Of a stretch of DNA of 36,390 nt, positions 2,206 to 36,387 are shown in pieces. Numbering within the stretch: position 1 is the first letter of the stretch; each line of letters opens with the position of its first letter. The notes beneath the pieces are model-generated. The model saw only the letters and a list, made by a program, of their open reading frames with translations, did no database searches and was not told the DNA's origin. The position numbers and the translations under genes are program-made. The stretch comes from Acidobacteriota bacterium (GTDB taxonomy: Bacteria; Acidobacteriota; UBA6911; JACQSX01), in assembly GCA_036507075.1 (NCBI GenBank), contig DASXQR010000110.1, positions 1 to 36,390 on the forward strand. Reading direction: 5' to 3'.

Positions 2206-2774
2206 CGAAAGACCATGTCGCGCGCGCTTCGACCGTTCCGTCTGCAATGGGACAGGAACAGGGAGTAATAGCTCTCCCGGATAAAGTCTTTCTTTTTGTA
2301 GCCCAGACTCTCGGCAACCCTGGTAACGCTCTTCGCGTCGCCTTCCAACTCGACAAAATTACCGATGGGCGTCTCGTCGATCATCACTTTTACAAATCGC
2401 GGCCGGCTCTTCTCGCGCGAACCGGAGCGCGTCTGATACACAGTGCGATACTTTTGATAGCGAAAAGCAACTTTGTATCCAAGCTTGCGGAAGATTTCCA
2501 GGACCTCCGCTGGATTAACCTCGGTCTCGAGTTCCTCGCGCACCTTGAATATCGAATTTGCAAGCGGTGGCCCTTTGAACGTCAAATAGCCTTTTCCTCG
2601 TTCGTTTCGGACCCTCAGCAGCAGTCCATTCTCCCGTAACCTCAATTTCGGAAGGTCGAGCACGGAATTATCCTCGAATTTTCGTTCCGCAACCCGGCGA
2701 GGCCGCAATCTCCCCAGTTTCTCCAGAAATTCCTTCAGGTTGCACACCGGAAGTTTGATTTCAACTTCTCTCAT
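2202..2774 (-). CDS. CYTH-domain protein (class IV adenylate cyclase / triphosphate tunnel metalloenzyme)
   Basis: N-terminal EVEIK, LLRVR, LTFKG, REELE, KYR and FVELEG motifs. Confidence 0.88.
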   Translation of the reverse strand: MREVEIKLPVCNLKEFLEKLGRLRPRRVAERKFEDNSVLDLPKLRLRENGLLLRVRNERGKGYLTFKGPPLANSIFKVREELETEVNPAEVLEIFRKLGYKVAFRYQKYRTVYQTRSGSREKSRPRFVKVMIDETPIGNFVELEGDAKSVTRVAESLGYKKKDFIRESYYSLFLSHCRRNGRSARDMVFR

Positions 2775-3274
2775 CAGTCCCTCTCCTGCATCTCCTGCTG
2801 AAAGGCGTTTAGCGTATCATCGTCAAAAAGTACAAAAATCACCTTTCTGAGACTTTTCGTGCCGGTGAACCGCTTTGCTTCACGAATCATGATGCGGGCG
2901 CATTCTTTCACCGGAAAACGGCCTACTCCGGTCCCAAACGCCGGCATTGCAACGGAAGAAAGCCCCAGCCGGTCACCCAGAGCCAGAGCGCTTTGAGTGG
3001 CGCCTCGGATGTAATTTGCGTTGGTTACCAGGTCCTGTCCCATGACGGCGGCATGCAGCACGTACTTATAAGGAAGCCGGCCGGCCGAAGTTTCAATGAC
3101 CTCGCCTATTTCAATGGGGCCGCGGGAAACTGCTTCCTTTTCAATTTGATCGCCTCCCTTTCGCCGGATCGCGCCCGCGACTCCCGCCCCCATCCAGAGA
3201 TGGTTATTGGCGGCGTTGACGATGGCGTCGGCGGAAGCCTCGGTTATGTCGCCTTTGAGGATTTCAATCAGCAT
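2774..3274 (-). CDS. Macrodomain protein (ADP-ribose binding/hydrolase, YmdB-like)
   Basis: GDIT, AIVNAAN, GAGVAGAI, HA and PAFGTGVG motifs. Confidence 0.92.
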   Translation of the reverse strand: MLIEILKGDITEASADAIVNAANNHLWMGAGVAGAIRRKGGDQIEKEAVSRGPIEIGEVIETSAGRLPYKYVLHAAVMGQDLVTNANYIRGATQSALALGDRLGLSSVAMPAFGTGVGRFPVKECARIMIREAKRFTGTKSLRKVIFVLFDDDTLNAFQQEMQERD

Positions 3275-20299: not shown

Positions 20300-21217
20300 T
20301 CACTCTTTCAGCGACGGTTGATCAATACTTGCCGGCAATTCGGGCAACGGTTCCCCTCGAGCCGGGTCGTCCGCCAGGGCTTTGCCCCATCGCCGCATTC
20401 GCGCAAGAAAATCCTTCAACTCTTCGGTTTCCGGAACCCGCTGGTTATTCTCATAGCCCTGGATCAAAATTTCTGTTTTGTGAAGAAGCTCGACCAGCAT
20501 CTCCCGCCGCCATTCAGGCCGGAGATCCTGATCGGGCAGGCGCGCGTGCAGCGCTTTGACCCTCCAGCGATCCATTCCCCAGAATTTGCGAGACAGTTGA
20601 TCTGCATGGCCGCCAAACTTCGTGATCAGCCGATCATTTACCAGCGAGACGGGAAACCTTGATGTGACGCGCAGCCAGAATTCGTAATCCTCGCAGACGG
20701 TAAAAGCAGTGTCGAAGACCCCCACTCGCTCCAACACGGACCGATGAACCAGCGATGACGAGGGACTGACAACGCACAGCGGAAGGCACTGGAGAAAGAT
20801 CCAGCCGCCGTGCTTCTGATGTTTCTTCATCGGATTTACCCGGCGCCCCCGCCGGATCCAGATCTCATCGGTATGACAGATTCGATCCCCGGTCGCGCCG
20901 ATCATTTCAAATTGTCTTTCCAGCTTTGCCGGCAGCCAGACGTCATCGGAATCCAGGAATGCAAGCCAGTCAGAGCGGGCCAGTTCTATGCCGCAGTTTC
21001 GGGCTGCCGATACTCCCTGATTCTCAGTCCTGTGATAGCGCACTCGCGGATCGGCGCCGAAGCGATTGCAGACATTTTCCGTGCCGTCCCGGGAGCCATC
21101 GTCCACGATGATCAGTTCCCAGTCAGCAAAAGTCTGCGTCAGAACAGATTCAATTGCGCGGGGAAGCAGCAACGCGCGATTCCATGTAGGAATGATGACG
21201 GAGACTTTGGGGATCAA
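20300..21217 (-). CDS. Glycosyltransferase family 2
   Basis: VSVIIPTWNR, VDDGSRD, GVSAARN, FLDSDD and EDYEFW motifs. Confidence 0.92.
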   Translation of the reverse strand: MIPKVSVIIPTWNRALLLPRAIESVLTQTFADWELIIVDDGSRDGTENVCNRFGADPRVRYHRTENQGVSAARNCGIELARSDWLAFLDSDDVWLPAKLERQFEMIGATGDRICHTDEIWIRRGRRVNPMKKHQKHGGWIFLQCLPLCVVSPSSSLVHRSVLERVGVFDTAFTVCEDYEFWLRVTSRFPVSLVNDRLITKFGGHADQLSRKFWGMDRWRVKALHARLPDQDLRPEWRREMLVELLHKTEILIQGYENNQRVPETEELKDFLARMRRWGKALADDPARGEPLPELPASIDQPSLKE

Positions 21218-21247: not shown

Positions 21248-21515
21248 GGTTATCGGGTTATCGGGTTATCGGGTTATCGGGTTATCGGGTTGCGGGTTAC
21301 CGGTTTTCGGGTTACGAGTTTTCGAATTACGGTTTTCGAGTTACGGGTTTTTGAAATTGCGCAATTTAGAGTTTTAAGCCTGCAAAGTTCGAAGCCCCAC
21401 GAATTCTCTGAATCTTCGATCCGGAACTCGTAACCTGATGACCGTCCGAAACCCGTAACCCGATAACCCGATAACCCGAAAACCCGTAACCCGATAACCC
21501 GTAACCCGAAAACTT
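21248..21515. repeat. Inverted octamer arrays (gggttatc)n ... (aacccgat/aacccgta)n
   Basis: Degenerating octamer array at 21248-21350 mirrored at ~21425-21515. Confidence 0.85.
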
Positions 21516-21526
21516 ATAGGCTGCAA

Positions 21527-24034
21527 CTAAGCGAGGGGTCGACCTTCGAATGAGATTAATCGCGGCTTTGATTTAAGTTTGCGATCAGTGCGCTGCACTT
21601 TGTTGGAGTACATGTTCTGATCGGCCAGCGCGATCAGCGCCTGCATATCCCTGCCATCTTCGGGAAATGTGGCGCACCCGACGCTGATGCCGATGCGAAT
21701 AACGGCGCCGTCCAGTTGCATTTCGTGCTCGTCAACGCTTCTCTGGATGCGCTGGATATTGTCTTCGGCCTGCGCCCGGTTTGCGCCCGAGAGCATCGCT
21801 ACAAATTCATCGCCGGCATAACGCACGCATGTGTCCGATTTGCGCATCTGATTTCGAAGGATGTGGGACACTTCAACCAGCAGCCTGTCCCCCACCTGGT
21901 GCCCATAGGTATCATTCACATGCTTGAATCTTTCCAGGTCCATCACCAGGATTGAAACCGGATAGCCGAGCCTTTCGGCGCGCCGAAATTCCTGCTCCAG
22001 GAAAATGTAGAGGTATCTGGAGTTGGGAAGTCCTGTCAGCAGGTCGGTATAGGCGTCCTCCTGGGTCTCTTCAAAGATCAGGGCGTTGTTGATGGCCACC
22101 GCGGCCTGTCTTCCAATGGTCTCCAGCAGCCGCTGGTGATCCTGGGAGTAATTTCGCGCGAATTCCGAATAAAGCGTGATGACGGCTACGATATTGCCTT
22201 CACTCGATAACGGCACCGACAAGCAGCTCTGAAACACATTCTGCAATTCACGCGAATCAGGAAAATCCCCGGCAGGTGAGGCATTCAGGATGGATTGATT
22301 GTTGGCCACCACCCAACCCGTGCAGCCTTCGCCACGCGCCGGATGCAGCTTTTCGATCTGCTCGGCATCTTTTCCCTGCGCGTGGAAGCACGACAGGCTG
22401 TCCCCGCCGCTGTCTACCAGGAAAATCCCGCAGGCGCTGTACGAGATGATGTTCTTGATCTTCCCCGCGATAATAGCCAGTGTCTCCGATACGCTTAAGG
22501 ATTTGCCCACGTTCTGAGAAAGCTCGTAAATGGCATGGATCTCTTTGTGCGTGGCCGCGATATCGTGAAAAACCGTGGTTTCAATGCGGTGCTTGCGACT
22601 GGTCACCTCAGCGGCAACAGATTCTTCGATGCTTCGCAGCACCGTCTCGGGCAGATGTGCTTCCTCTTCCCGCGCCCGCTTTTCCAGCGTCTCAATGTTC
22701 TCGGAAAACAGCCGCACCAGTTCCGGATCGTAGGAAATACTCGCCTCTTTCTGAATATAATCCAGCGCGACTTCGCGACTAAGCTCCGCCCGATAGGGGC
22801 GGTCGGAGCGCAGGGCGTCGTAACAGTCGACGATGGACAGAATGCGAGCGCCCAGGGGGATGGCGTCACCCTTCAGTCCATCGGGATAACCGCTTCCGTC
22901 CCACTTTTCATGATGGTGTTTGACCGTAGGCACGACGGGGAATGGAAAGTTCACAGAACTGAGAATGTCCGCACCCACTATGGGGTGGATCTTCATCTTC
23001 TGGAATTCACTTTCCGTAAGCGCGGTCGGCTTGTTGAGGATGTACTCGGGAATGGCCAGCTTTCCGACGTCGTGCAGAAGCGAAGCGGCCCTGAGTCCCT
23101 CTATTTCGCGAGTATCCCCTATACCTGCCAGCTCGGCCAGTCCCAGCGCAAAGCTCTGCACCCGGCGAACGTGGCCGTGCGTGGTTTGATCCTTCGCGTC
23201 AATGGCCATGGCCAGCGAGCTGATGGTTGAGTGGTAAAGCTCGTTCACTTCCGCCACGTGTTTCTGGGCCTGTTCGATCCTGTCCAGGTAAACCTTATAG
23301 GTGAAGTAAAAGACCATCACAATCGGAATGGTCACGGACACCAGATAGATACTTTCTCTGGGGACGTAATGGCGCGGCAGGTATACCACCAGAGTGGCGG
23401 CGGCAGCTCCTGCAAAATGGGTTAAAGAGGTCCAGAGGAAATTGTCCCACCACAGGTCGACAAAGCGAGTCCTGGTCACCAAAGACATGGCCAGGGCGAC
23501 GGAACCGCTGTTGAAGATGAACAAAACAATGGAAGCAATACTCAGCGAGAGCAGGACCTTGATCAGGTCCGGAGGAGAGGCAACGGGAAATTTTCCATTG
23601 CTGTAAAAGTGATAGAAAACCTTGCAAGCAAGAAAAGAGCCGATTGCCACGTTGGAGAAATTAAAAAGGAACCGGTATCCGCCGTCCAACTGCTTGCGCA
23701 TCTGGCTGCGCAGGTTGGATACCAGCGTGTCGACGACGGTAAGAATGACCGTCACATATGGGCCATACCAAAGGATTGCTACGTAAATAAAGACGTCTGA
23801 TAAGGTTACCGTCAGTGAGTGGGCCCGATTGGTCATGGTGGGAATTCGGACCGATAGAAGACCTCCCACGGTGGCAAGCACGGCCAGGAAAACCCATTCG
23901 TCATTCCTGCGGCTCACTACGAAAACCTGGAAAAGCGACCACACAAGGATGGCGCATCCTAAAAGATTAATTGTGTAAATAAAGGCTTTTGCTGGCAGGC
24001 TCAGGGGGGCGGAACTGTCCTCTTTAATGATCAT
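21527..24034 (-). CDS. Membrane-bound c-di-GMP signalling protein: ~7 TM sensor - HD-GYP - GAF - GGDEF
   Basis: Hydrophobic N-terminal ~250 aa; DAKD..T.GH, LLHDVGK and HHEKWDGSGYP; GAF (GCTGWV, CLSVPL); D.LTGLPN, FKHVNDTYGHQVGD and RKSD..RYAGDEF. Confidence 0.93.
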   Translation of the reverse strand: MIIKEDSSAPLSLPAKAFIYTINLLGCAILVWSLFQVFVVSRRNDEWVFLAVLATVGGLLSVRIPTMTNRAHSLTVTLSDVFIYVAILWYGPYVTVILTVVDTLVSNLRSQMRKQLDGGYRFLFNFSNVAIGSFLACKVFYHFYSNGKFPVASPPDLIKVLLSLSIASIVLFIFNSGSVALAMSLVTRTRFVDLWWDNFLWTSLTHFAGAAAATLVVYLPRHYVPRESIYLVSVTIPIVMVFYFTYKVYLDRIEQAQKHVAEVNELYHSTISSLAMAIDAKDQTTHGHVRRVQSFALGLAELAGIGDTREIEGLRAASLLHDVGKLAIPEYILNKPTALTESEFQKMKIHPIVGADILSSVNFPFPVVPTVKHHHEKWDGSGYPDGLKGDAIPLGARILSIVDCYDALRSDRPYRAELSREVALDYIQKEASISYDPELVRLFSENIETLEKRAREEEAHLPETVLRSIEESVAAEVTSRKHRIETTVFHDIAATHKEIHAIYELSQNVGKSLSVSETLAIIAGKIKNIISYSACGIFLVDSGGDSLSCFHAQGKDAEQIEKLHPARGEGCTGWVVANNQSILNASPAGDFPDSRELQNVFQSCLSVPLSSEGNIVAVITLYSEFARNYSQDHQRLLETIGRQAAVAINNALIFEETQEDAYTDLLTGLPNSRYLYIFLEQEFRRAERLGYPVSILVMDLERFKHVNDTYGHQVGDRLLVEVSHILRNQMRKSDTCVRYAGDEFVAMLSGANRAQAEDNIQRIQRSVDEHEMQLDGAVIRIGISVGCATFPEDGRDMQALIALADQNMYSNKVQRTDRKLKSKPRLISFEGRPLA

Positions 24035-24068
24035 TAGGCGTCGTCGTTCCGAGGGCTGGCGTCAACGC

Positions 24069-24104
24069 AAAGAGGGGGGATACACCACATCCCCCCCCTT
24101 TTTT
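24069..24104. terminator. G/C stem-loop, probable (partial) intrinsic terminator
   Basis: aaagaggggggat-acaccac-atccccccccttt; T6 tail on the + strand, short TCTTT tail on the - strand. Confidence 0.6.
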
Positions 24105-24160
24105 ATCTCAATTCCGTTGCAGTTTACAGGAGCGCGAACGCTGCTCCCATGACATCCAGC

Positions 24161-24196
24161 CTACGTAGTCCAGTAGACGATTGATCTGATTATCAT
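24161..24196 (-). CDS. Small peptide MIIRSIVYWTT (11 aa; alternative in-frame ATG at 24235 gives MPKLSSRRKRRSSMIIRSIVYWTT)
   Basis: AAAGGAG 7 nt before ATG; reads ATG ATA ATC AGA TCA ATC GTC TAC TGG ACT ACG TAG; shares IVYWTT with the neighbouring peptide. Confidence 0.7.
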   Translation of the reverse strand: MIIRSIVYWTT

Positions 24197-24266: not shown

Positions 24267-24320
24267 TTACGTCGTCCAGTAAACGATCTGATTTGTCCAG
24301 TAAACGATTTGAGTATTCAT
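24267..24320 (-). CDS. Small peptide MNTQIVYWTNQIVYWTT (17 aa)
   Basis: Protease stop TAA is followed directly by AGGAG-5nt-ATG; two QIVYWT units with synonymous differences. Confidence 0.78.
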   Translation of the reverse strand: MNTQIVYWTNQIVYWTT

Positions 24321-24330
24321 GTCTTCTCCT

Positions 24331-26340
24331 TTATGCAAATTCGCCGGTTACAATGCTGTTAGTCCAAGTGATGAAATTGGTCCACGTAATCAGGTCCGAA
24401 TTGGTCCAGGTGATCAGATTGGTCCACGTGATCAGATCAGAGTTTGTCCAGGTGATCAGATCGGAGTTTGTCCAGGTGATCAGATCCGAATTCGTCCAGG
24501 TGATGAGATTGGTCCAGGTAATCAGATTCGTCCAGGTAATAAGGTCCGAATTGGTCCAGGTGATCAGGTCCGAATTGGTCCAGGTGATCAGGTCTGAATT
24601 GGTCCACGTAATCAAATCCGAAGCGGACAAAACTACGGGACTTGACCAGCTCACACTGTCAGTTGAGCCGCTTTTCCCCGTGAAAATCGGGTGATAACGC
24701 TGGATCAGCGGATCGCTCCAGGCCTTGTCGGTAATGGTAATCGCACTAGACCAGACTCTGCCGCTTCCCCAGACAGCGGCAGAATTAGAGCGGATGTAGC
24801 TTCCGTACACCACTCCCCTGCCGAGGATCATGGCCTGTCCCCAGTCAACTTTCTCGCTTCCGATATGCGAAAAGGGAACCGTGGCTCCCGCCTGGATAAT
24901 TCGATCCCCCGGTGTCCTTGACCTGATATCCCGGGTAATTACCGTTGCAAGACGCGCGGCGCCTTCGATGTTCACTTCGCCATTGCCCTGCTCCAGGAAA
25001 TTGGGGCGGGTCATTTTTTCGGCCGTGTACATCATCACAGCACGGGCCAGGTTCGTATTCAGGTCGGGATTGGCCTCCAGAACCAGGGCGAAAGCGCCGG
25101 AGACTACCGCTGCCGACATGGACGTGCCGCTGAGCGTTATCAGCTCATTGTCGGGGGAAAGCTGGCCGGGATAGGTTCCCGCCAGATAGGAACCCTTCGC
25201 GTTGATGGAAGTGATTCGGTGGCCCGGAGCTACGATATCGGGCTTTAAGAGACCATCCGGGAAAGAGGGTCCAATTGCGCTGAATCTGGCAATTTCGTCG
25301 TCGGATCGAGAAACAGTGCCGTTTGATTTTGTGGCGCCCACCGCCACAACCAACGGGTTGTTTGCCGGCGAGTAGATGCCGCCAACCACAGTCCGTCCTT
25401 CGAAGTAACCCGAATTGCCGGCGGAAGCCACAACAATTATTCCAGCTTCAACGGCGCGCTGAGCGGCTCGCGACAAGGGGTCTGTGGCATAGCCTTCCTT
25501 AGGTCCGTGACCGGCCGAAAGGTTGATTATGTTGATCCCATACTGACGCTTGTTTCTTACACACCAATCCAGCGCGCTTATAACGTCACTGGTGCGACCC
25601 GAACCATCATCCCCAAGTGCCCTCAGGGAAATCAGGTTTACGTCAGGGGCCATTCCTCGGAACGAGCTGCCGGCACTCTCAAGTCTCCCGCCAATGAGTC
25701 CGGCAACATGAGTTCCATGGCCGTAACCATCCCGGCTCTGGAAGTCGTTGCCGTCCTCTGCGGCAGAGTTGGTGAAATCTCGTGAGGCAATTACCCTCAG
25801 ACCAACACGTCGATCGATACCGCTGTCGATCACCGCCACCGTGACGCCCTTACCGGTCAAACCGAGTGCCGCCCCTGCCTGCTGAGCCCCCGTTGTCTCG
25901 GACGTCAAGCTTGCGTCAGGTTCATAGCCGCTCGCTTGAACCGGGTCGTCGGCCGAGACGCGAACCACATCCTCGCCGAGCGCAAGATCGACCAGTCTTT
26001 CCATGGGAAGCTCGAGTGCCTGCGCCTGAATCAGGGAAAGCTGTTTCAGCACGCGCCCTCCCAGAGCTTGAACCCAGGCTTCATTCAGCCGGCCTCGATC
26101 GACAGCTTCAGACTTTTGAGCGCGGTTTTGAAACTGGACAATCACTCGGACTAGGCGTGACGTCTGCCTGGATCGATAAGCTTGGGCAAGTTCACTCAGA
26201 ACATCCGGTGACAGGCGCTTTTCGAGCCGGTTGTAAAGGCTCTCGTAGGGTTTGGAAGTGGCAGCGATCGCGGGAGTCGTCAGGACAATGAGAATAGCGA
26301 GCGCGAACAGCCACTTCCGCTTGACGATGGTGTGGGCCAT
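24331..26340 (-). CDS. Secreted S8 (subtilisin-like) serine protease with C-terminal Trp-repeat tail
   Basis: AAGGAGG RBS; signal peptide; prodomain; triad VAVIDSG / HGTHVAG / SGTSMS and oxyanion SAGN; 12 (SD)LITWTN repeats. Confidence 0.95.
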   Translation of the reverse strand: MAHTIVKRKWLFALAILIVLTTPAIAATSKPYESLYNRLEKRLSPDVLSELAQAYRSRQTSRLVRVIVQFQNRAQKSEAVDRGRLNEAWVQALGGRVLKQLSLIQAQALELPMERLVDLALGEDVVRVSADDPVQASGYEPDASLTSETTGAQQAGAALGLTGKGVTVAVIDSGIDRRVGLRVIASRDFTNSAAEDGNDFQSRDGYGHGTHVAGLIGGRLESAGSSFRGMAPDVNLISLRALGDDGSGRTSDVISALDWCVRNKRQYGINIINLSAGHGPKEGYATDPLSRAAQRAVEAGIIVVASAGNSGYFEGRTVVGGIYSPANNPLVVAVGATKSNGTVSRSDDEIARFSAIGPSFPDGLLKPDIVAPGHRITSINAKGSYLAGTYPGQLSPDNELITLSGTSMSAAVVSGAFALVLEANPDLNTNLARAVMMYTAEKMTRPNFLEQGNGEVNIEGAARLATVITRDIRSRTPGDRIIQAGATVPFSHIGSEKVDWGQAMILGRGVVYGSYIRSNSAAVWGSGRVWSSAITITDKAWSDPLIQRYHPIFTGKSGSTDSVSWSSPVVLSASDLITWTNSDLITWTNSDLITWTNSDLITWTNLITWTNLITWTNSDLITWTNSDLITWTNSDLITWTNLITWTNSDLITWTNFITWTNSIVTGEFA
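24358..24621 (-). repeat. Coding tandem repeat: 8x SDLITWTN + 3x LITWTN + 1x FITWTN
   Basis: 24- and 18-nt units counted in both DNA and translation. Confidence 0.95.
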
Positions 26341-26419: not shown

Positions 26420-26552
26420 CTTCGGCGACCGGTCGACCTGCCCTCAACCGTTCAAGGCTGCTTGCGCCTGTCCAATGACACACAGCCCGTTCGGCCTCGG
26501 ATTTAGGTCCGCGGCTTTGCGCCCTGATCTTTCAACCAGGTTGCCCTTTCGG
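26420..26552 (-). ncRNA. c-di-GMP-I (GEMM) riboswitch aptamer, proximal copy with long P3 insertion
   Basis: Minus strand CCGAAAGGGCAACCTGGTT-GAAA-GATCAGGGCGCAAAGCCGCGGACCTAAA...GGTCGACCGGTCGCCGAAG matches the GEMM pattern GGCAA-stem-GAAA-stem-GCAAAGCC..G.CTAA...GCC. Confidence 0.78.
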
Positions 26553-26567
26553 TGGTGGTGCCCCCCT

Positions 26568-26655
26568 CGTACGGCAGCCGTCGAAACCTTATCGTCCAGA
26601 CTTAGGTCCGCGGCTTTGCTTAGCCATCTTTCGACTGGCTTCGCCTTTTCGTCGT
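26568..26655 (-). ncRNA. c-di-GMP-I (GEMM) riboswitch aptamer, distal copy
   Basis: Minus strand GAAAAGGCGAAGCCAGTC-GAAA-GATGGCTAAGCAAAGCCGCGGACCTAAG...GGTTTCGACGGCTGCCG; shares the 18-nt core GCAAAGCCGCGGACCTAA with the proximal copy. Confidence 0.75.
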
Positions 26656-26714: not shown

Positions 26715-26743
26715 AGTATCGTCGGTAAGCAGGCCACTGTCAA
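26715..26743 (-). promoter_or_regulatory. sigma70-type promoter for the riboswitch-protease operon
   Basis: TTGACA-17 nt-GATACT on the minus strand, ~60 nt upstream of the distal aptamer. Confidence 0.65.
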
Positions 26744-26939: not shown

Positions 26940-28352
26940 CTAACGACGCTGACGTTGGGCGCGGTTGGCATTACCGGGAATCCAGCGGGGTTGCTCCAGT
27001 TCTCGGTTCCACGCTTCCCAGGCGGCCGCCAGGTGCCTCACTTTGTCGGGTTCTCTCTCGGCCAAATTGTTCTGTTCTCCGATGTCGGTTGCCAGGTTGT
27101 AAAGGTGAGCACCCTCGGTGCTGGCAGGCGTTCGGCGTTCAATGAAATCCGCTCCAGCCCCTGGGGCCCTTACCAGTTTCCACTCACTTTCGCGGATCGC
27201 CAACTGTGGACCGAATCGCCAGTAAAGCGCACCATGAGGCCTTGCCTTGTTCTTGCGATTTAAATATGGAAGCAGGTCGACGCCATCCAACTTCCATTCC
27301 GGTTTGATATCGACGCGGGCGGCCATCATTGACGTAACAGGAATATCCATCTGGATGACCGGATAATCATAAACCTTCCCGGACGGCAGTTTTCCCTTCC
27401 ATTGCACAATGAAAGGAATGCGGATCCCGCCCTCCCAGGTCTGCGCTTTGAATCCACGCAGCGGATTGTTGCGCGAAGCGTTGACCCGAGTGGGTCCGCC
27501 ATTATCGCTGAAGAAAAAAATCAGTGTGTTCTCCTCCAGGCGCTGCTTGTGCAGCAATGTCAACACACGGCCAACGTTGTCATCGAGAGCGGTGTGCATG
27601 GCGGCAAACGTGCGTCGCAGCGGATCCTGGATGTGGCTGACTCGCGGCATGTACCTTTCGGCAGCCTCCATCGGCCCGTGATCGGCGTTGAAAGCAAGAT
27701 AGAGAAACCACGGCTTTCCCCTGTGTCGTTCGATGAATGAAACGGCTTCGTCCCCGAACATATCCGTAGTGTAAGTCATCTGCCTGACAGGCTCGGTGCC
27801 GCGCATGATCGCGCCGTCGTTGTTGTGCAAATAGCTGTGCGCTCCTCCGAGGAATCCGAAGAACTCGTCGAATCCCCGCTTTTGCGGGTGAAATTCAGGT
27901 CGATATCCCAAGTGCCACTTTCCGACCAATGCGGTGGCATATCCGGCGGCCTTGAGACGATCAGCAAGCGTTGTCTCGGTGAGGGGCAATCCGAAATTGG
28001 GATCGGCAGTGGCTTCCGGCCCGGGATTGAACTCATGACCGAAGCGCTGCTGGTAACGACCCGTCAACAGGGCGGCGCGCGTCGGACTGCAATAAGGCCC
28101 CGAGACATACCCGTTGGTAAAACGGACACCGTTGCGCGCGAGCGAATCGATATTGGGCGTGGGAACATCCTTACAGCCGTTCACTCCGACGTCGGCATAC
28201 CCGAGGTCGTCGGCAACAATAATCAGAATGTTCGGCCGATCGGCCTTGGCCCCCACGCTTCTCCATGGTCCGAAAATAATGGCGACGGAAACTACGACCA
28301 GCAGAAACAGTAAACTCTTAACGCGCCGCATTGGTGCTGTTTTTTGCGTCAT
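26940..28352 (-). CDS. Secreted arylsulfatase-A-like (formylglycine-dependent) sulfatase
   Basis: Signal peptide; PNILIIVADDLG, CSPTRAALLTGR, GKWHLG, SDNGG and EGGIRIPF motifs. Confidence 0.95.
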   Translation of the reverse strand: MTQKTAPMRRVKSLLFLLVVVSVAIIFGPWRSVGAKADRPNILIIVADDLGYADVGVNGCKDVPTPNIDSLARNGVRFTNGYVSGPYCSPTRAALLTGRYQQRFGHEFNPGPEATADPNFGLPLTETTLADRLKAAGYATALVGKWHLGYRPEFHPQKRGFDEFFGFLGGAHSYLHNNDGAIMRGTEPVRQMTYTTDMFGDEAVSFIERHRGKPWFLYLAFNADHGPMEAAERYMPRVSHIQDPLRRTFAAMHTALDDNVGRVLTLLHKQRLEENTLIFFFSDNGGPTRVNASRNNPLRGFKAQTWEGGIRIPFIVQWKGKLPSGKVYDYPVIQMDIPVTSMMAARVDIKPEWKLDGVDLLPYLNRKNKARPHGALYWRFGPQLAIRESEWKLVRAPGAGADFIERRTPASTEGAHLYNLATDIGEQNNLAEREPDKVRHLAAAWEAWNRELEQPRWIPGNANRAQRQRR

Positions 28353-28416: not shown

Positions 28417-28733
28417 GACCCAATGCCCATATCCGAGCCGCGGGCGTACGCAAGCGGACCCTCCGCTGGTAGTTTGCCACGAATGCACGAAGACAGGAAG
28501 GACAACGACCCAATGCCCATATCCGAACCGCGCGCGTAAGCAAGCGGACCCTGCGCGGGTAGTTTGCCACGAAGGCACGAAGACAGGAAGGACAACGATT
28601 GCCTTAGAAGTGCCACTTCTCCGACAACCTGGATCGAGTTATGAGAAGTGTTACGTCAAAATGAACAGCGATTCTTCGTGGCTTCGTGGCAAATCCCCGC
28701 GGAGGGTCCGCTTGCTTACGCGCGCGGCTCGGA
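28417..28733. repeat. Composite repeat: 90-bp tandem duplication (28417-28506, 28507-28596) plus inverted arm (28674-28733)
   Basis: Each unit contains ccgagccgcgggcgtacgcaagcggaccc and tttgccacgaa.gcacgaag; the right arm is the reverse complement. Confidence 0.88.
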
Positions 28734-31295: not shown

Positions 31296-31304
31296 CTTTG
31301 GTTG

Positions 31305-31517
31305 TTAGTTGTCAGTGGTCCGTTGTCAGTGGTCCGTTGTCAGTGGTCCGTTGTCAGTGGTCCGTTGTCAGTTGTTCGTTGCCCTTGTCGGCTGAAGGTA
31401 CTTTCCAAGGTTCACTCGATACTCGACATTTGACCCTCGTCACTCCCAGCAACGTCCAACTGACCACGGACAACGGACAGCCTTATTCCGCATTCCACAT
31501 TCCGCATTCCGCATTCG
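31305..31517. repeat. (gtcagtggtccgtt)n 14-mer array with inverted partner (~31458-31479), followed by an attccgc heptamer array
   Basis: Directly visible between ftsQ and ftsA. Confidence 0.85.
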
Positions 31518-36194: not shown

Positions 36195-36387
36195 GATTGC
36201 GGAAATCGGAATGCGGAATGCGGAATAAGTATCGGTACTCATTTTGACCACGAATCGGTTCTCTGTCGTATTCCCAACTCCCTATCCCGCATTCCGCATT
36301 CCCCATTCCCCATTCCGCATTCCGCATTCCGCATTCCGCATTCCCCATTCCAAATTCCACATTCCGCATTTCAAATTCCGCATTCAA
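36195..36387. repeat. Inverted heptamer arrays (gaatgcg)n ... (attccgc/attcccc)n
   Basis: Short left array at 36197-36225 and long right array at ~36287-36385. Confidence 0.85.

Follow-up and report, generated by a model that had tools for sequence, protein, structure and literature searches.

In this study, which was based on a 36,390-nucleotide stretch of DNA from an Acidobacteriota bacterium (GenBank assembly GCA_036507075.1, contig DASXQR010000110.1; hereafter the window), we analysed a subtilase gene whose product ends in twelve tryptophan (Trp) repeats, together with the elements that surround it. These follow one another in a fixed order: two riboswitches, the tailed protease, two micropeptide genes, a hairpin and a gene for a sensor enzyme with the domains MASE9-HD-GYP-GAF-GGDEF. 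We propose that the tail may be a multi-copy precursor of a Trp peptide signal for MASE9, that the micropeptides may be its leaderless in-cell form and that cyclic di-GMP (c-di-GMP) may close the loop, a reading for which we hold the chances of being right and wrong to be evenly balanced. The exported protease would cut short Trp peptides out of its own tail; a cut after the second residue behind each Trp would yield (SD)LITWTN peptides whose free C-terminus matches that of the micropeptides, and the two micropeptide genes would supply the same motif inside the cell. A cut at this place would agree with the usual preference of subtilisins, since the P4 residue would be hydrophobic and the P2 residue small. 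The tail peptides would then reach the MASE9 pocket by re-import or through the membrane, their binding would shift the activity of HD-GYP relative to that of GGDEF, and c-di-GMP would feed back on protease and micropeptide expression via the riboswitches.

The protease is encoded on the reverse strand (24331..26340) by an open reading frame (ORF) of 669 codons and comprises a signal-peptide-like N-terminus, a prodomain, an S8 catalytic domain and the Trp-repeat tail. Its match to PF00082 (Pfam, residues 163-448) scored 172.5 bits against a cut-off of 21.8, and every model in an NCBIfam scan remained below its cut-off. The catalytic triad D172, H208 and S407 and the oxyanion residue N309 are all present, and the catalytic residues are invariant among the relatives. 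The resemblance of the N-terminus to a signal peptide was read from the sequence; with hydrophobicity as a proxy, a hydrophobic 12-mer within the first 40 residues was found in 98 of 102 full-length relatives compared to 3 of 102 in a control window. The closest solved chain was the subtilisin-like protease 3afg (E-value 1.5e-41, query residues 64-460), which resembles the protease in the prodomain and the subtilase catalytic domain and differs in the tail: residues after 463 had no match among solved chains at the threshold used for 3afg. An AlphaFold model of the whole protein, based on 105 sequences, was confident for the prodomain and the catalytic domain, which are followed by a small beta subdomain around W500. 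The homolog search yielded 3153 proteins among 8000 candidates, 120 of which were listed, and the loci related to the protease locus are mostly from Acidobacteriota.

The perfect array (24358..24621, reverse strand, residues 574-661) lies inside the last 96 codons of the ORF and is composed of 12 (SD)[L/F]ITWTN units, i.e., eight SDLITWTN, three LITWTN and one FITWTN, with lengths in order of 8, 8, 8, 8, 6, 6, 8, 8, 8, 6, 8 and 6 residues and the SD dipeptide present in 8 of the 12. It is followed by a C-terminal Trp-less unit, SIVTGEFA, and the stop codon (24331..24357, reverse strand). The preliminary description of this DNA had called the units protein-identical, which was right for the five-residue core ITWTN, invariant in 12 of 12 units, and wrong for the first residue, which is L in 11 and F in one. 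It had also placed degenerate Trp units ahead of the array, and five (VDWGQ, AVWGS, RVWSS, KAWSD and VSWSS, with W500, W524, W530, W541 and W565) were located in the linker at 24849-24640 (24640..24849, reverse strand). Every codon that it had named as evidence of third-position variation was found in the array, and its claim of selection on the peptide rather than slippage was borne out. Distinct variants, counted relative to the consensus codon, number 14 synonymous and 1 non-synonymous (binomial P = 2e-8), although the 5.7 synonymous and 18.3 non-synonymous sites would lead one to expect the opposite ratio; the pairwise proportions of synonymous (pS) and non-synonymous (pN) differences were 0.67 and 0.011, and nine distinct 18-nucleotide cores occur among the 12. 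This count shows that selection acts on the tail peptide. Neutral slippage as the origin of the array would agree with the tail words being homogeneous within species and different between species, as under concerted evolution, but it is refuted by the same count of synonymous and non-synonymous variants and conflicts with the presence of at least four units in 145 of the 178 relatives' tails (proteins with a tail of at least 45 residues); we allow it practically no chance. Moreover, contigs of an independent soil run, X2, reproduce the array and cover 24376-24671 with a single differing letter, at 24493, which on manual reading is a synonymous change in a Thr codon, and the array is therefore not an assembly artefact. 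Three other runs, X1, X3 and X4, yielded short pieces that contribute no further evidence.

Among the 120 listed homologs, the tails consist mostly of hydrophobic-hydrophobic-Trp repeats that use other words. The commonest Trp spacing was 6, found in 84 of 145 tails, with 7 to 15 in most of the others and mixed spacings in 108 of 145 (missed units inflate the long spacings); some tails have just two or three units. With periods anywhere between 6 and 15 and so often mixed, the units behave as a linear motif would. The SD dipeptide had been likened to a spacer in a multi-core precursor, and this was abandoned for a conserved spacer because relatives show many different linkers. Ice binding through T-W-T was likewise dropped because the relatives do not have the Thr pair. 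As side observations, three to five tailed proteases stand in tandem at each of four loci (L007, L041, L042 and L052), two of which (L042 and L052) have Trp-free hexapeptide tails, and ORFs that resemble acetyltransferases, as read from the sequence, adjoin the protease at L036, L038, L050, L072, L074, L080, L207 and L208; three of these ORFs end in a hydrophobic-VWG motif that resembles a tail unit.

The strongest rival explanation, which we nevertheless consider unlikely, assigns the tail a structural role: its repeats would form a beta-roll, a beta-helix or an amyloid-like ladder, which would either remain attached to the enzyme or polymerise extracellularly, and the micropeptides would be single strands serving some separate purpose or else the sole ligands of MASE9. 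Hexapeptide left-handed beta-helices (PF00132) and the grass antifreeze beta-roll (PF21300) share with the tails repeats of 6-7 residues, a hydrophobic strand and a Gly/Asp/Asn turn. When 20 relatives were scanned with Pfam, eight matched beta-roll or hexapeptide families, all below the cut-off (LbR_Ice_bind in four, 21-27.5 bits against 30; Hexapep/LbH in four), and a cluster of look-alikes found with a language model (score 0.91) was 28% Hexapep. A dominant period of 6, the existence of Trp-free hexapeptide tails and the cap-like ending G[DEN]x0-4 of 47 of the 178 tails also agree with a structural repeat. However, the window tail matches no Pfam repeat family, including the two named above, the periods and linkers of the family are irregular, some tails have just two or three units, and all of the Atlas structure matches were below a template modelling (TM) score of 0.5. 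The structure prediction for the tail, which the preliminary description had proposed as a check, gave no confident fold for residues 531-669 (predicted local distance difference test, pLDDT, <50), a weak argument, since the repeats align poorly. A structural tail would also leave unexplained its tie to MASE9 and the ending of the micropeptides one or two residues past Trp. One part of the tail does appear to be structural: the first degenerate unit with W500 is nearly invariant in the family and lies within the small predicted beta subdomain, because of which it is probably not a precursor core.

The idea of a multi-copy precursor, which had also been put forward in the preliminary description, thus loses its first degenerate unit and gains support from micropeptide genes that stand by themselves, encode the same core and end one or two residues past Trp, and from the conserved sensor next to them. 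Both micropeptide genes lie on the reverse strand, are unannotated and have the ribosome site AAGGAG, which in the first overlaps the protease stop. The first (24267..24320) encodes 17 residues with two IVYWT cores, the second (24161..24196) encodes 11 residues that end in IVYWTT, and neither product has a signal peptide. Orthologous copies of the first gene exist, and a variant in soil run X2 at 24270 was read by hand as synonymous. In the genome of the bacterium itself, 13 of 2229 small ORFs led by a ribosome site end in such a Trp motif, three of them with IVYWT. Micropeptides were found between the protease and the sensor in 10 of the 35 loci with a MASE9-like gene at most 1.5 kb downstream, and also at many loci of the class. 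This recurrence across loci argues, from comparative evidence, that the micropeptides are real genes. They were present within 700 nucleotides upstream of 20 of 44 genes for MASE9-HD-GYP proteins, compared to none of 17 stand-alone, none of 11 kinase, none of 10 GGDEF and two of nine unclassified MASE9 genes; the count covers genes with 700 nucleotides of upstream sequence, and the stand-alone genes leave little space for a micropeptide gene, as they adjoin the protease. At two further loci, a micropeptide is one gene away from the MASE9 gene. A scan of metagenome contigs with the micropeptide pattern gave one match, on a phage-like contig with neither protease nor MASE9 nearby, which was taken as chance.

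Across 23 loci, the micropeptide word is [K/R/Q]-[I/L]-[V/I]-[Y/H/V/I]-W-[T/G]-[D/E]-stop and the tail word is [D/N]-[S/Q/G/T]-[I/V]-hydrophobic-W-[G/T/S]-[D/N]. Among 37 micropeptides from 26 hand-picked loci, with one dropped on account of a wrongly chosen ORF, the last Trp is followed by two residues and the stop codon in 29 and by one residue in eight; the filter permitted 0 to 3. Tail and micropeptide share the residue after Trp at 14 of 25 loci (p 4.5e-4 by permutation, with the caveat that related loci do not count as independent). Micropeptide genes occur in tandem series of up to three, cores are repeated within one peptide, and the distance to the next gene ranges from about 60 to more than 500 nucleotides. 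These last features bear on another explanation, in which the micropeptides would act as ribosome-stalling leaders for control of the next gene, be it ftsI or the sensor gene, and the tail would repeat an arrest motif, as part of a secretion monitor resembling SecM. Arrest peptides include SecM, MifM and TnaC, and a conserved C-terminal motif right before the stop, a terminator-like hairpin ahead of the sensor gene and translational coupling to the ftsL stop would fit such a role. The variable distance, the tandem series and the repeated cores do not, nor do two loci at which a whole gene stands between the micropeptide and the sensor, and we therefore consider stalling very improbable.

The sensor gene (21527..24034, reverse strand) encodes a membrane protein of 835 residues with MASE9 (at about 24007-23249), HD-GYP, GAF and GGDEF domains. 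The HD and GYP motifs are intact, and GGDEF is present as the variant AGDEF with an RxxD site; the AGDEF variant can be active. The score of MASE9 (PF20972) was borderline, with 25.4 bits in the genome search and 23.0 in the whole-protein hmmscan against a cut-off of 24.3, and paralogs reached 37.2. The positions S/T68, F73, F115, N116, F163, N166 and W186 (domain numbering) are conserved. The model of the domain (pLDDT 88, predicted TM score 0.85) has eight membrane helices, two of them short, and in a structure search all of the top 15 rows were S-components from transporters of the energy-coupling factor (ECF) type, with Z from 14.2 to 8.9: NikM with Z 14.2 (root-mean-square deviation 3.6, 185 aligned), CbiM with 13.4 and RibU with 12.0. 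Foldseek agreed on S-components (best E-value 1.2e-3). According to the tool's own note, a Z near 13 is borderline for helical bundles, but the matches extend over the whole core and have a single fold in common. MASE9 is thus predicted to have the ECF S-component fold, i.e., a six-helix core with the capping loops L1, L3 and L5. In 46 sequences, these loops carry on average 2.1, 3.4 and 2.3 Lys+Arg residues compared to 0.6, 0.8 and 0.5 in the opposite loops, and an extra hydrophobic helix, the eighth, after H6 places HD-GYP on the same side as L1, L3 and L5. By the positive-inside rule, positively charged loops are cytoplasmic. Because of the eighth helix and the Lys/Arg-rich loops, the modelled pocket likely opens to the cytoplasm and the S-component core is likely inverted, and since the pocket would face inwards, leaderless peptides fit as its ligands.

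MASE9 has been described as a widespread sensor domain whose ligand was left open, with binding within the membrane suggested (bioRxiv 10.1101/2021.11.05.467447, in the accessible part). The window enzyme has the same domain pairing as the MASE9-HD-GYP phosphodiesterases treated there (PF20972; Thermotoga maritima TM1467 type and Streptomyces venezuelae HdgA); the accessible main text of that paper mentions neither a peptidase nor Acidobacteria and gives no ligand candidate, fold or gene neighbourhood. Receptors with the S-component fold, such as NikM, CbiM, RibU and 5TMR-LYT kinases like BtsS, share with MASE9 the core of six helices that is predicted for it, an additional N-terminal helix and the fusion of a sensor to a cytoplasmic output. 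In S-components and 5TMR kinases, however, the pocket opens to the outside, with H6 ending in the cytoplasm; the kinases have seven helices, whereas MASE9 has an eighth, positive pocket loops and a core that is likely inverted (PMC11109136, in the accessible part, where neither MASE nor HD-GYP occurs). The eighth helix, the Lys/Arg-rich loops and the lack of a 5TM-5TMR_LYT row in Pfam ruled out membership of MASE9 in the 5TMR-LYT family.

The pairing of tailed proteases with MASE9 is recurrent. In the bacterium's own genome, all four tailed proteases stand directly before a MASE9-like gene, and no MASE9 match was seen on the contigs that carry the five weaker S8 matches. At 35 of 79 related loci, a MASE9-like gene was within 1.5 kb downstream of the protease; at eight it was elsewhere in the locus, and 17 had no room to tell (the count used a custom profile iterated on the same loci). 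Of 61 genomes of the class, 45 contain the domain; with a stricter threshold, it was detected in 14 of 71 genomes of the phylum. Orthologs at 55-59% identity retain the riboswitch, the protease, the micropeptides, the sensor and a downstream family-2 glycosyltransferase (GT2), and most sit behind ftsA-ftsZ; in the window, the GT2 gene follows the sensor gene at 20300-21217, as it does in most of the orthologous loci across the class. Nine neighbours in the window were scanned, namely S8, the sensor, sulfatase, GT2, VWA, FtsZ, FtsA, EF-G and RluD. Searches of plasmids gave no match for MASE9 and nine generic S8 matches for the protease, of which one was inspected and had no sensor neighbour. 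The three paralogous proteases of the genome (L001, L002 and L003; G000:C210, C62 and C133) carry GVIWSD-type words, and each precedes a stand-alone MASE9 protein that lacks an output domain; such a stand-alone, inverted S-component could act as a sink, an anchor or a transporter. Two tandem MASE9 domains in one protein were seen behind the tailed protease at L090 and L197/L206. Two other loci (L120 7563-7842 and L121 6843-6995) have MASE9-HD-GYP with no tailed protease in the fetched stretch, preceded by peptides of 10-22 residues that end in ILWL, VLWM or ILWT, and adjoin an HlyD-type protein and a GAF sigma-54 activator.

Sigma-54-dependent regulation enters a further explanation, which we regard as quite improbable: the peptides would be signals, but their receptor would be a TPR-containing sigma-54 activator, with a logic like that of RRNPP, and MASE9 only a co-regulated neighbour. 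A protein with kinase-like, AAA, TPR and sigma-54 parts (Pfam) is encoded divergently upstream of the protease at L118, similar large ORFs occur at L124, L125 and L130, and sigma-54-like promoter motifs were found at all three paralogous proteases of the genome. No such gene, however, adjoins the window locus or its orthologs, a sigma-54 motif was searched for at the window locus and was not found, a single query with the N-terminal part of the L118 protein did not find it in the genome, and the micropeptides track the HD-GYP form of MASE9.

The c-di-GMP output of the sensor has a possible counterpart upstream of the protease. Two tandem aptamers of the c-di-GMP-I riboswitch (RF01051, cut-off 35) lie on the reverse strand at 26570..26655 (38.2 bits) and 26478..26555 (36.9 bits), and a genome-wide search showed them to be the sole matches in the whole genome. 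Riboswitches stand ahead of the protease in five of 16 scanned loci, from five genomes, and those of orthologs scored 37.3-57.8 bits. Further upstream, a sigma-70-like promoter, TTGACA-17-GATACT (26715..26743, reverse strand), was found as a consensus match only, and two such matches occurred in the region compared to 3.2 expected by chance. A sulfatase gene (26940-28352) separates the riboswitches from ftsZ; it looks like a later insertion because the riboswitches directly follow ftsZ in the orthologous loci L115 and L138. The window also contains intergenic tandem repeats of 7-8 nucleotides and a 90-nucleotide two-copy repeat (159-204, 21248-21513, 28417-28598, 31301-31381 and 36287-36385).

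Several observations weigh against a tail-borne signal for MASE9. The weakest link is the topology: since the protease looks exported and the predicted pocket faces the cytoplasm, an additional entry step is needed. Family-5 binding proteins of oligopeptide permeases, three of which are encoded in the genome, were also present in 11 of 14 control genomes. The association of the genes is incomplete, as 19 of the 79 loci have room but no MASE9-like gene, a micropeptide within 700 nucleotides is lacking at 24 of the 44 MASE9-HD-GYP genes, and no riboswitch was found at 12 distant loci and the four other loci of the genome. A terminator-like hairpin (24067..24105) stands between the micropeptides and the sensor gene, and a similar one is at the same place in three orthologous loci. 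The similarity of the tail and the micropeptides could stem from duplication or shared descent. Additionally, positions -4 and -3 show a systematic difference between the two words, and among close relatives the tail word shifts (LITWTN, SVMWTS, QILWSD) but IVYW persists as the micropeptide core; because of both differences, tail peptides and micropeptides may have different partners. Finally, period 6 is the commonest among the tails, and Trp-free tails of the GDGVVIGD type, which resemble hexapeptide beta-helices, likewise precede MASE9 genes. When the four MASE9 domains beside Trp-free tails were compared with 54 beside Trp tails, there were many differences, and the four look like one clade.

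The topology problem vanishes if MASE9 binds the motif on an uncut tail, which would then be a tethered multivalent ligand that the cytoplasmic pocket senses during synthesis or export, with the sensor monitoring secretion or being clustered. The tail would leave the cytoplasm after the rest of the protein, several micropeptides lack a signal peptide and have two or three cores, which would suit the cross-linking of dimeric enzymes, and the stand-alone MASE9 genes begin about 20-150 nucleotides past the protease stop. Nevertheless, such a ligand would have no need of a protease domain, the catalytic residues of which are invariant, and since the micropeptides end just past Trp, a free C-terminus seems to matter. 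We consider a tethered ligand rather improbable.

Copies of the motif also occur in the cell-division operon. In the bacterium's own genome, a gene for the peptide MTIVYWTE lies between an ftsL-like gene and ftsI (L141, G000:C176, about 2743-2817, reverse strand); the ftsL-like gene was identified by a DivIC match below the cut-off (E-value 4.7e-4). A second Trp peptide gene precedes it and its start overlaps the ftsL stop, and three more genomes (L143, L145 and L146) have a matching gene of eight codons that overlaps with the ftsL stop, which makes four of the five genomes of the family, compared to none of 25 loci outside the family. No protease or sensor is near these genes, and in one relative another micropeptide copy is likewise away from any protease or sensor. 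Short repeats similar to the intergenic ones of the window fill the ftsL-ftsI gap in relatives. A broader reading, which we regard as possible although we would sooner expect it to be wrong, takes MASE9 as an inside-out S-component receptor for Trp micropeptides: leaderless peptides of 6-36 residues from mini-genes in chosen operons, including those behind ftsL, would report operon expression to c-di-GMP enzymes, and the exported protease would cut from itself a polymer of a variable, species-specific word as a signal between cells.

The locus names candidate ligands for MASE9, peptides of 6-17 residues. If the proposed precursor role of the tail is correct, an abundant, poorly studied phylum would gain peptide signalling tied to c-di-GMP. 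The protease would be its own signal precursor, the S-component fold would extend to an inward-facing receptor, and conserved genes of 6-11 codons, one of them coupled to ftsL, would have been overlooked by annotation. Under the broader reading, the peptides would form a signalling family of Acidobacteriota unrelated to RRNPP, Agr or ComX, with the signal built into its own processing enzyme. Searches of the open-access literature revealed no account of the cassette, of the tail or of the micropeptides.

Among known systems, the ComQXPA pheromone of Bacillus is a short peptide with Trp near its C-terminus that is read by a multi-helix membrane sensor. The window resembles it in both respects and differs in the protease-borne array, which has no counterpart there; none of the nine scanned neighbours is a ComQ-type prenyltransferase, and the rest of the genome was not searched for one. 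Assignment to the cyanobactin type (PatA/PatG) of ribosomally synthesised and post-translationally modified peptides was rejected, as TIGR03895 scored 50.9 bits against a cut-off of 421 and no tailoring enzyme was present among the scanned neighbours. Membership in RRNPPA was rejected as well: the adjacent MASE9-HD-GYP-GAF-GGDEF gene has no TPR row and there is no separate exported propeptide gene, the cores being fused to the protease and the micropeptides lacking signals. The arrangement appears to be new, each of its protein families is known, and no known system fits it; its function we infer from sequence. The closest parallel under the proposed precursor role is the RRNPPA signalling of Bacillota (Rap/Phr and duplicated pheromone propeptides; PMC11343458, in the accessible part), with its exported propeptide, repeated cores of 5-6 residues, extracellular cutting, re-import and cytoplasmic readout, from which the window would differ in having twelve cores fused to a protease, a membrane reader of the S-component type instead of a TPR protein, a c-di-GMP output and leaderless micropeptide genes.

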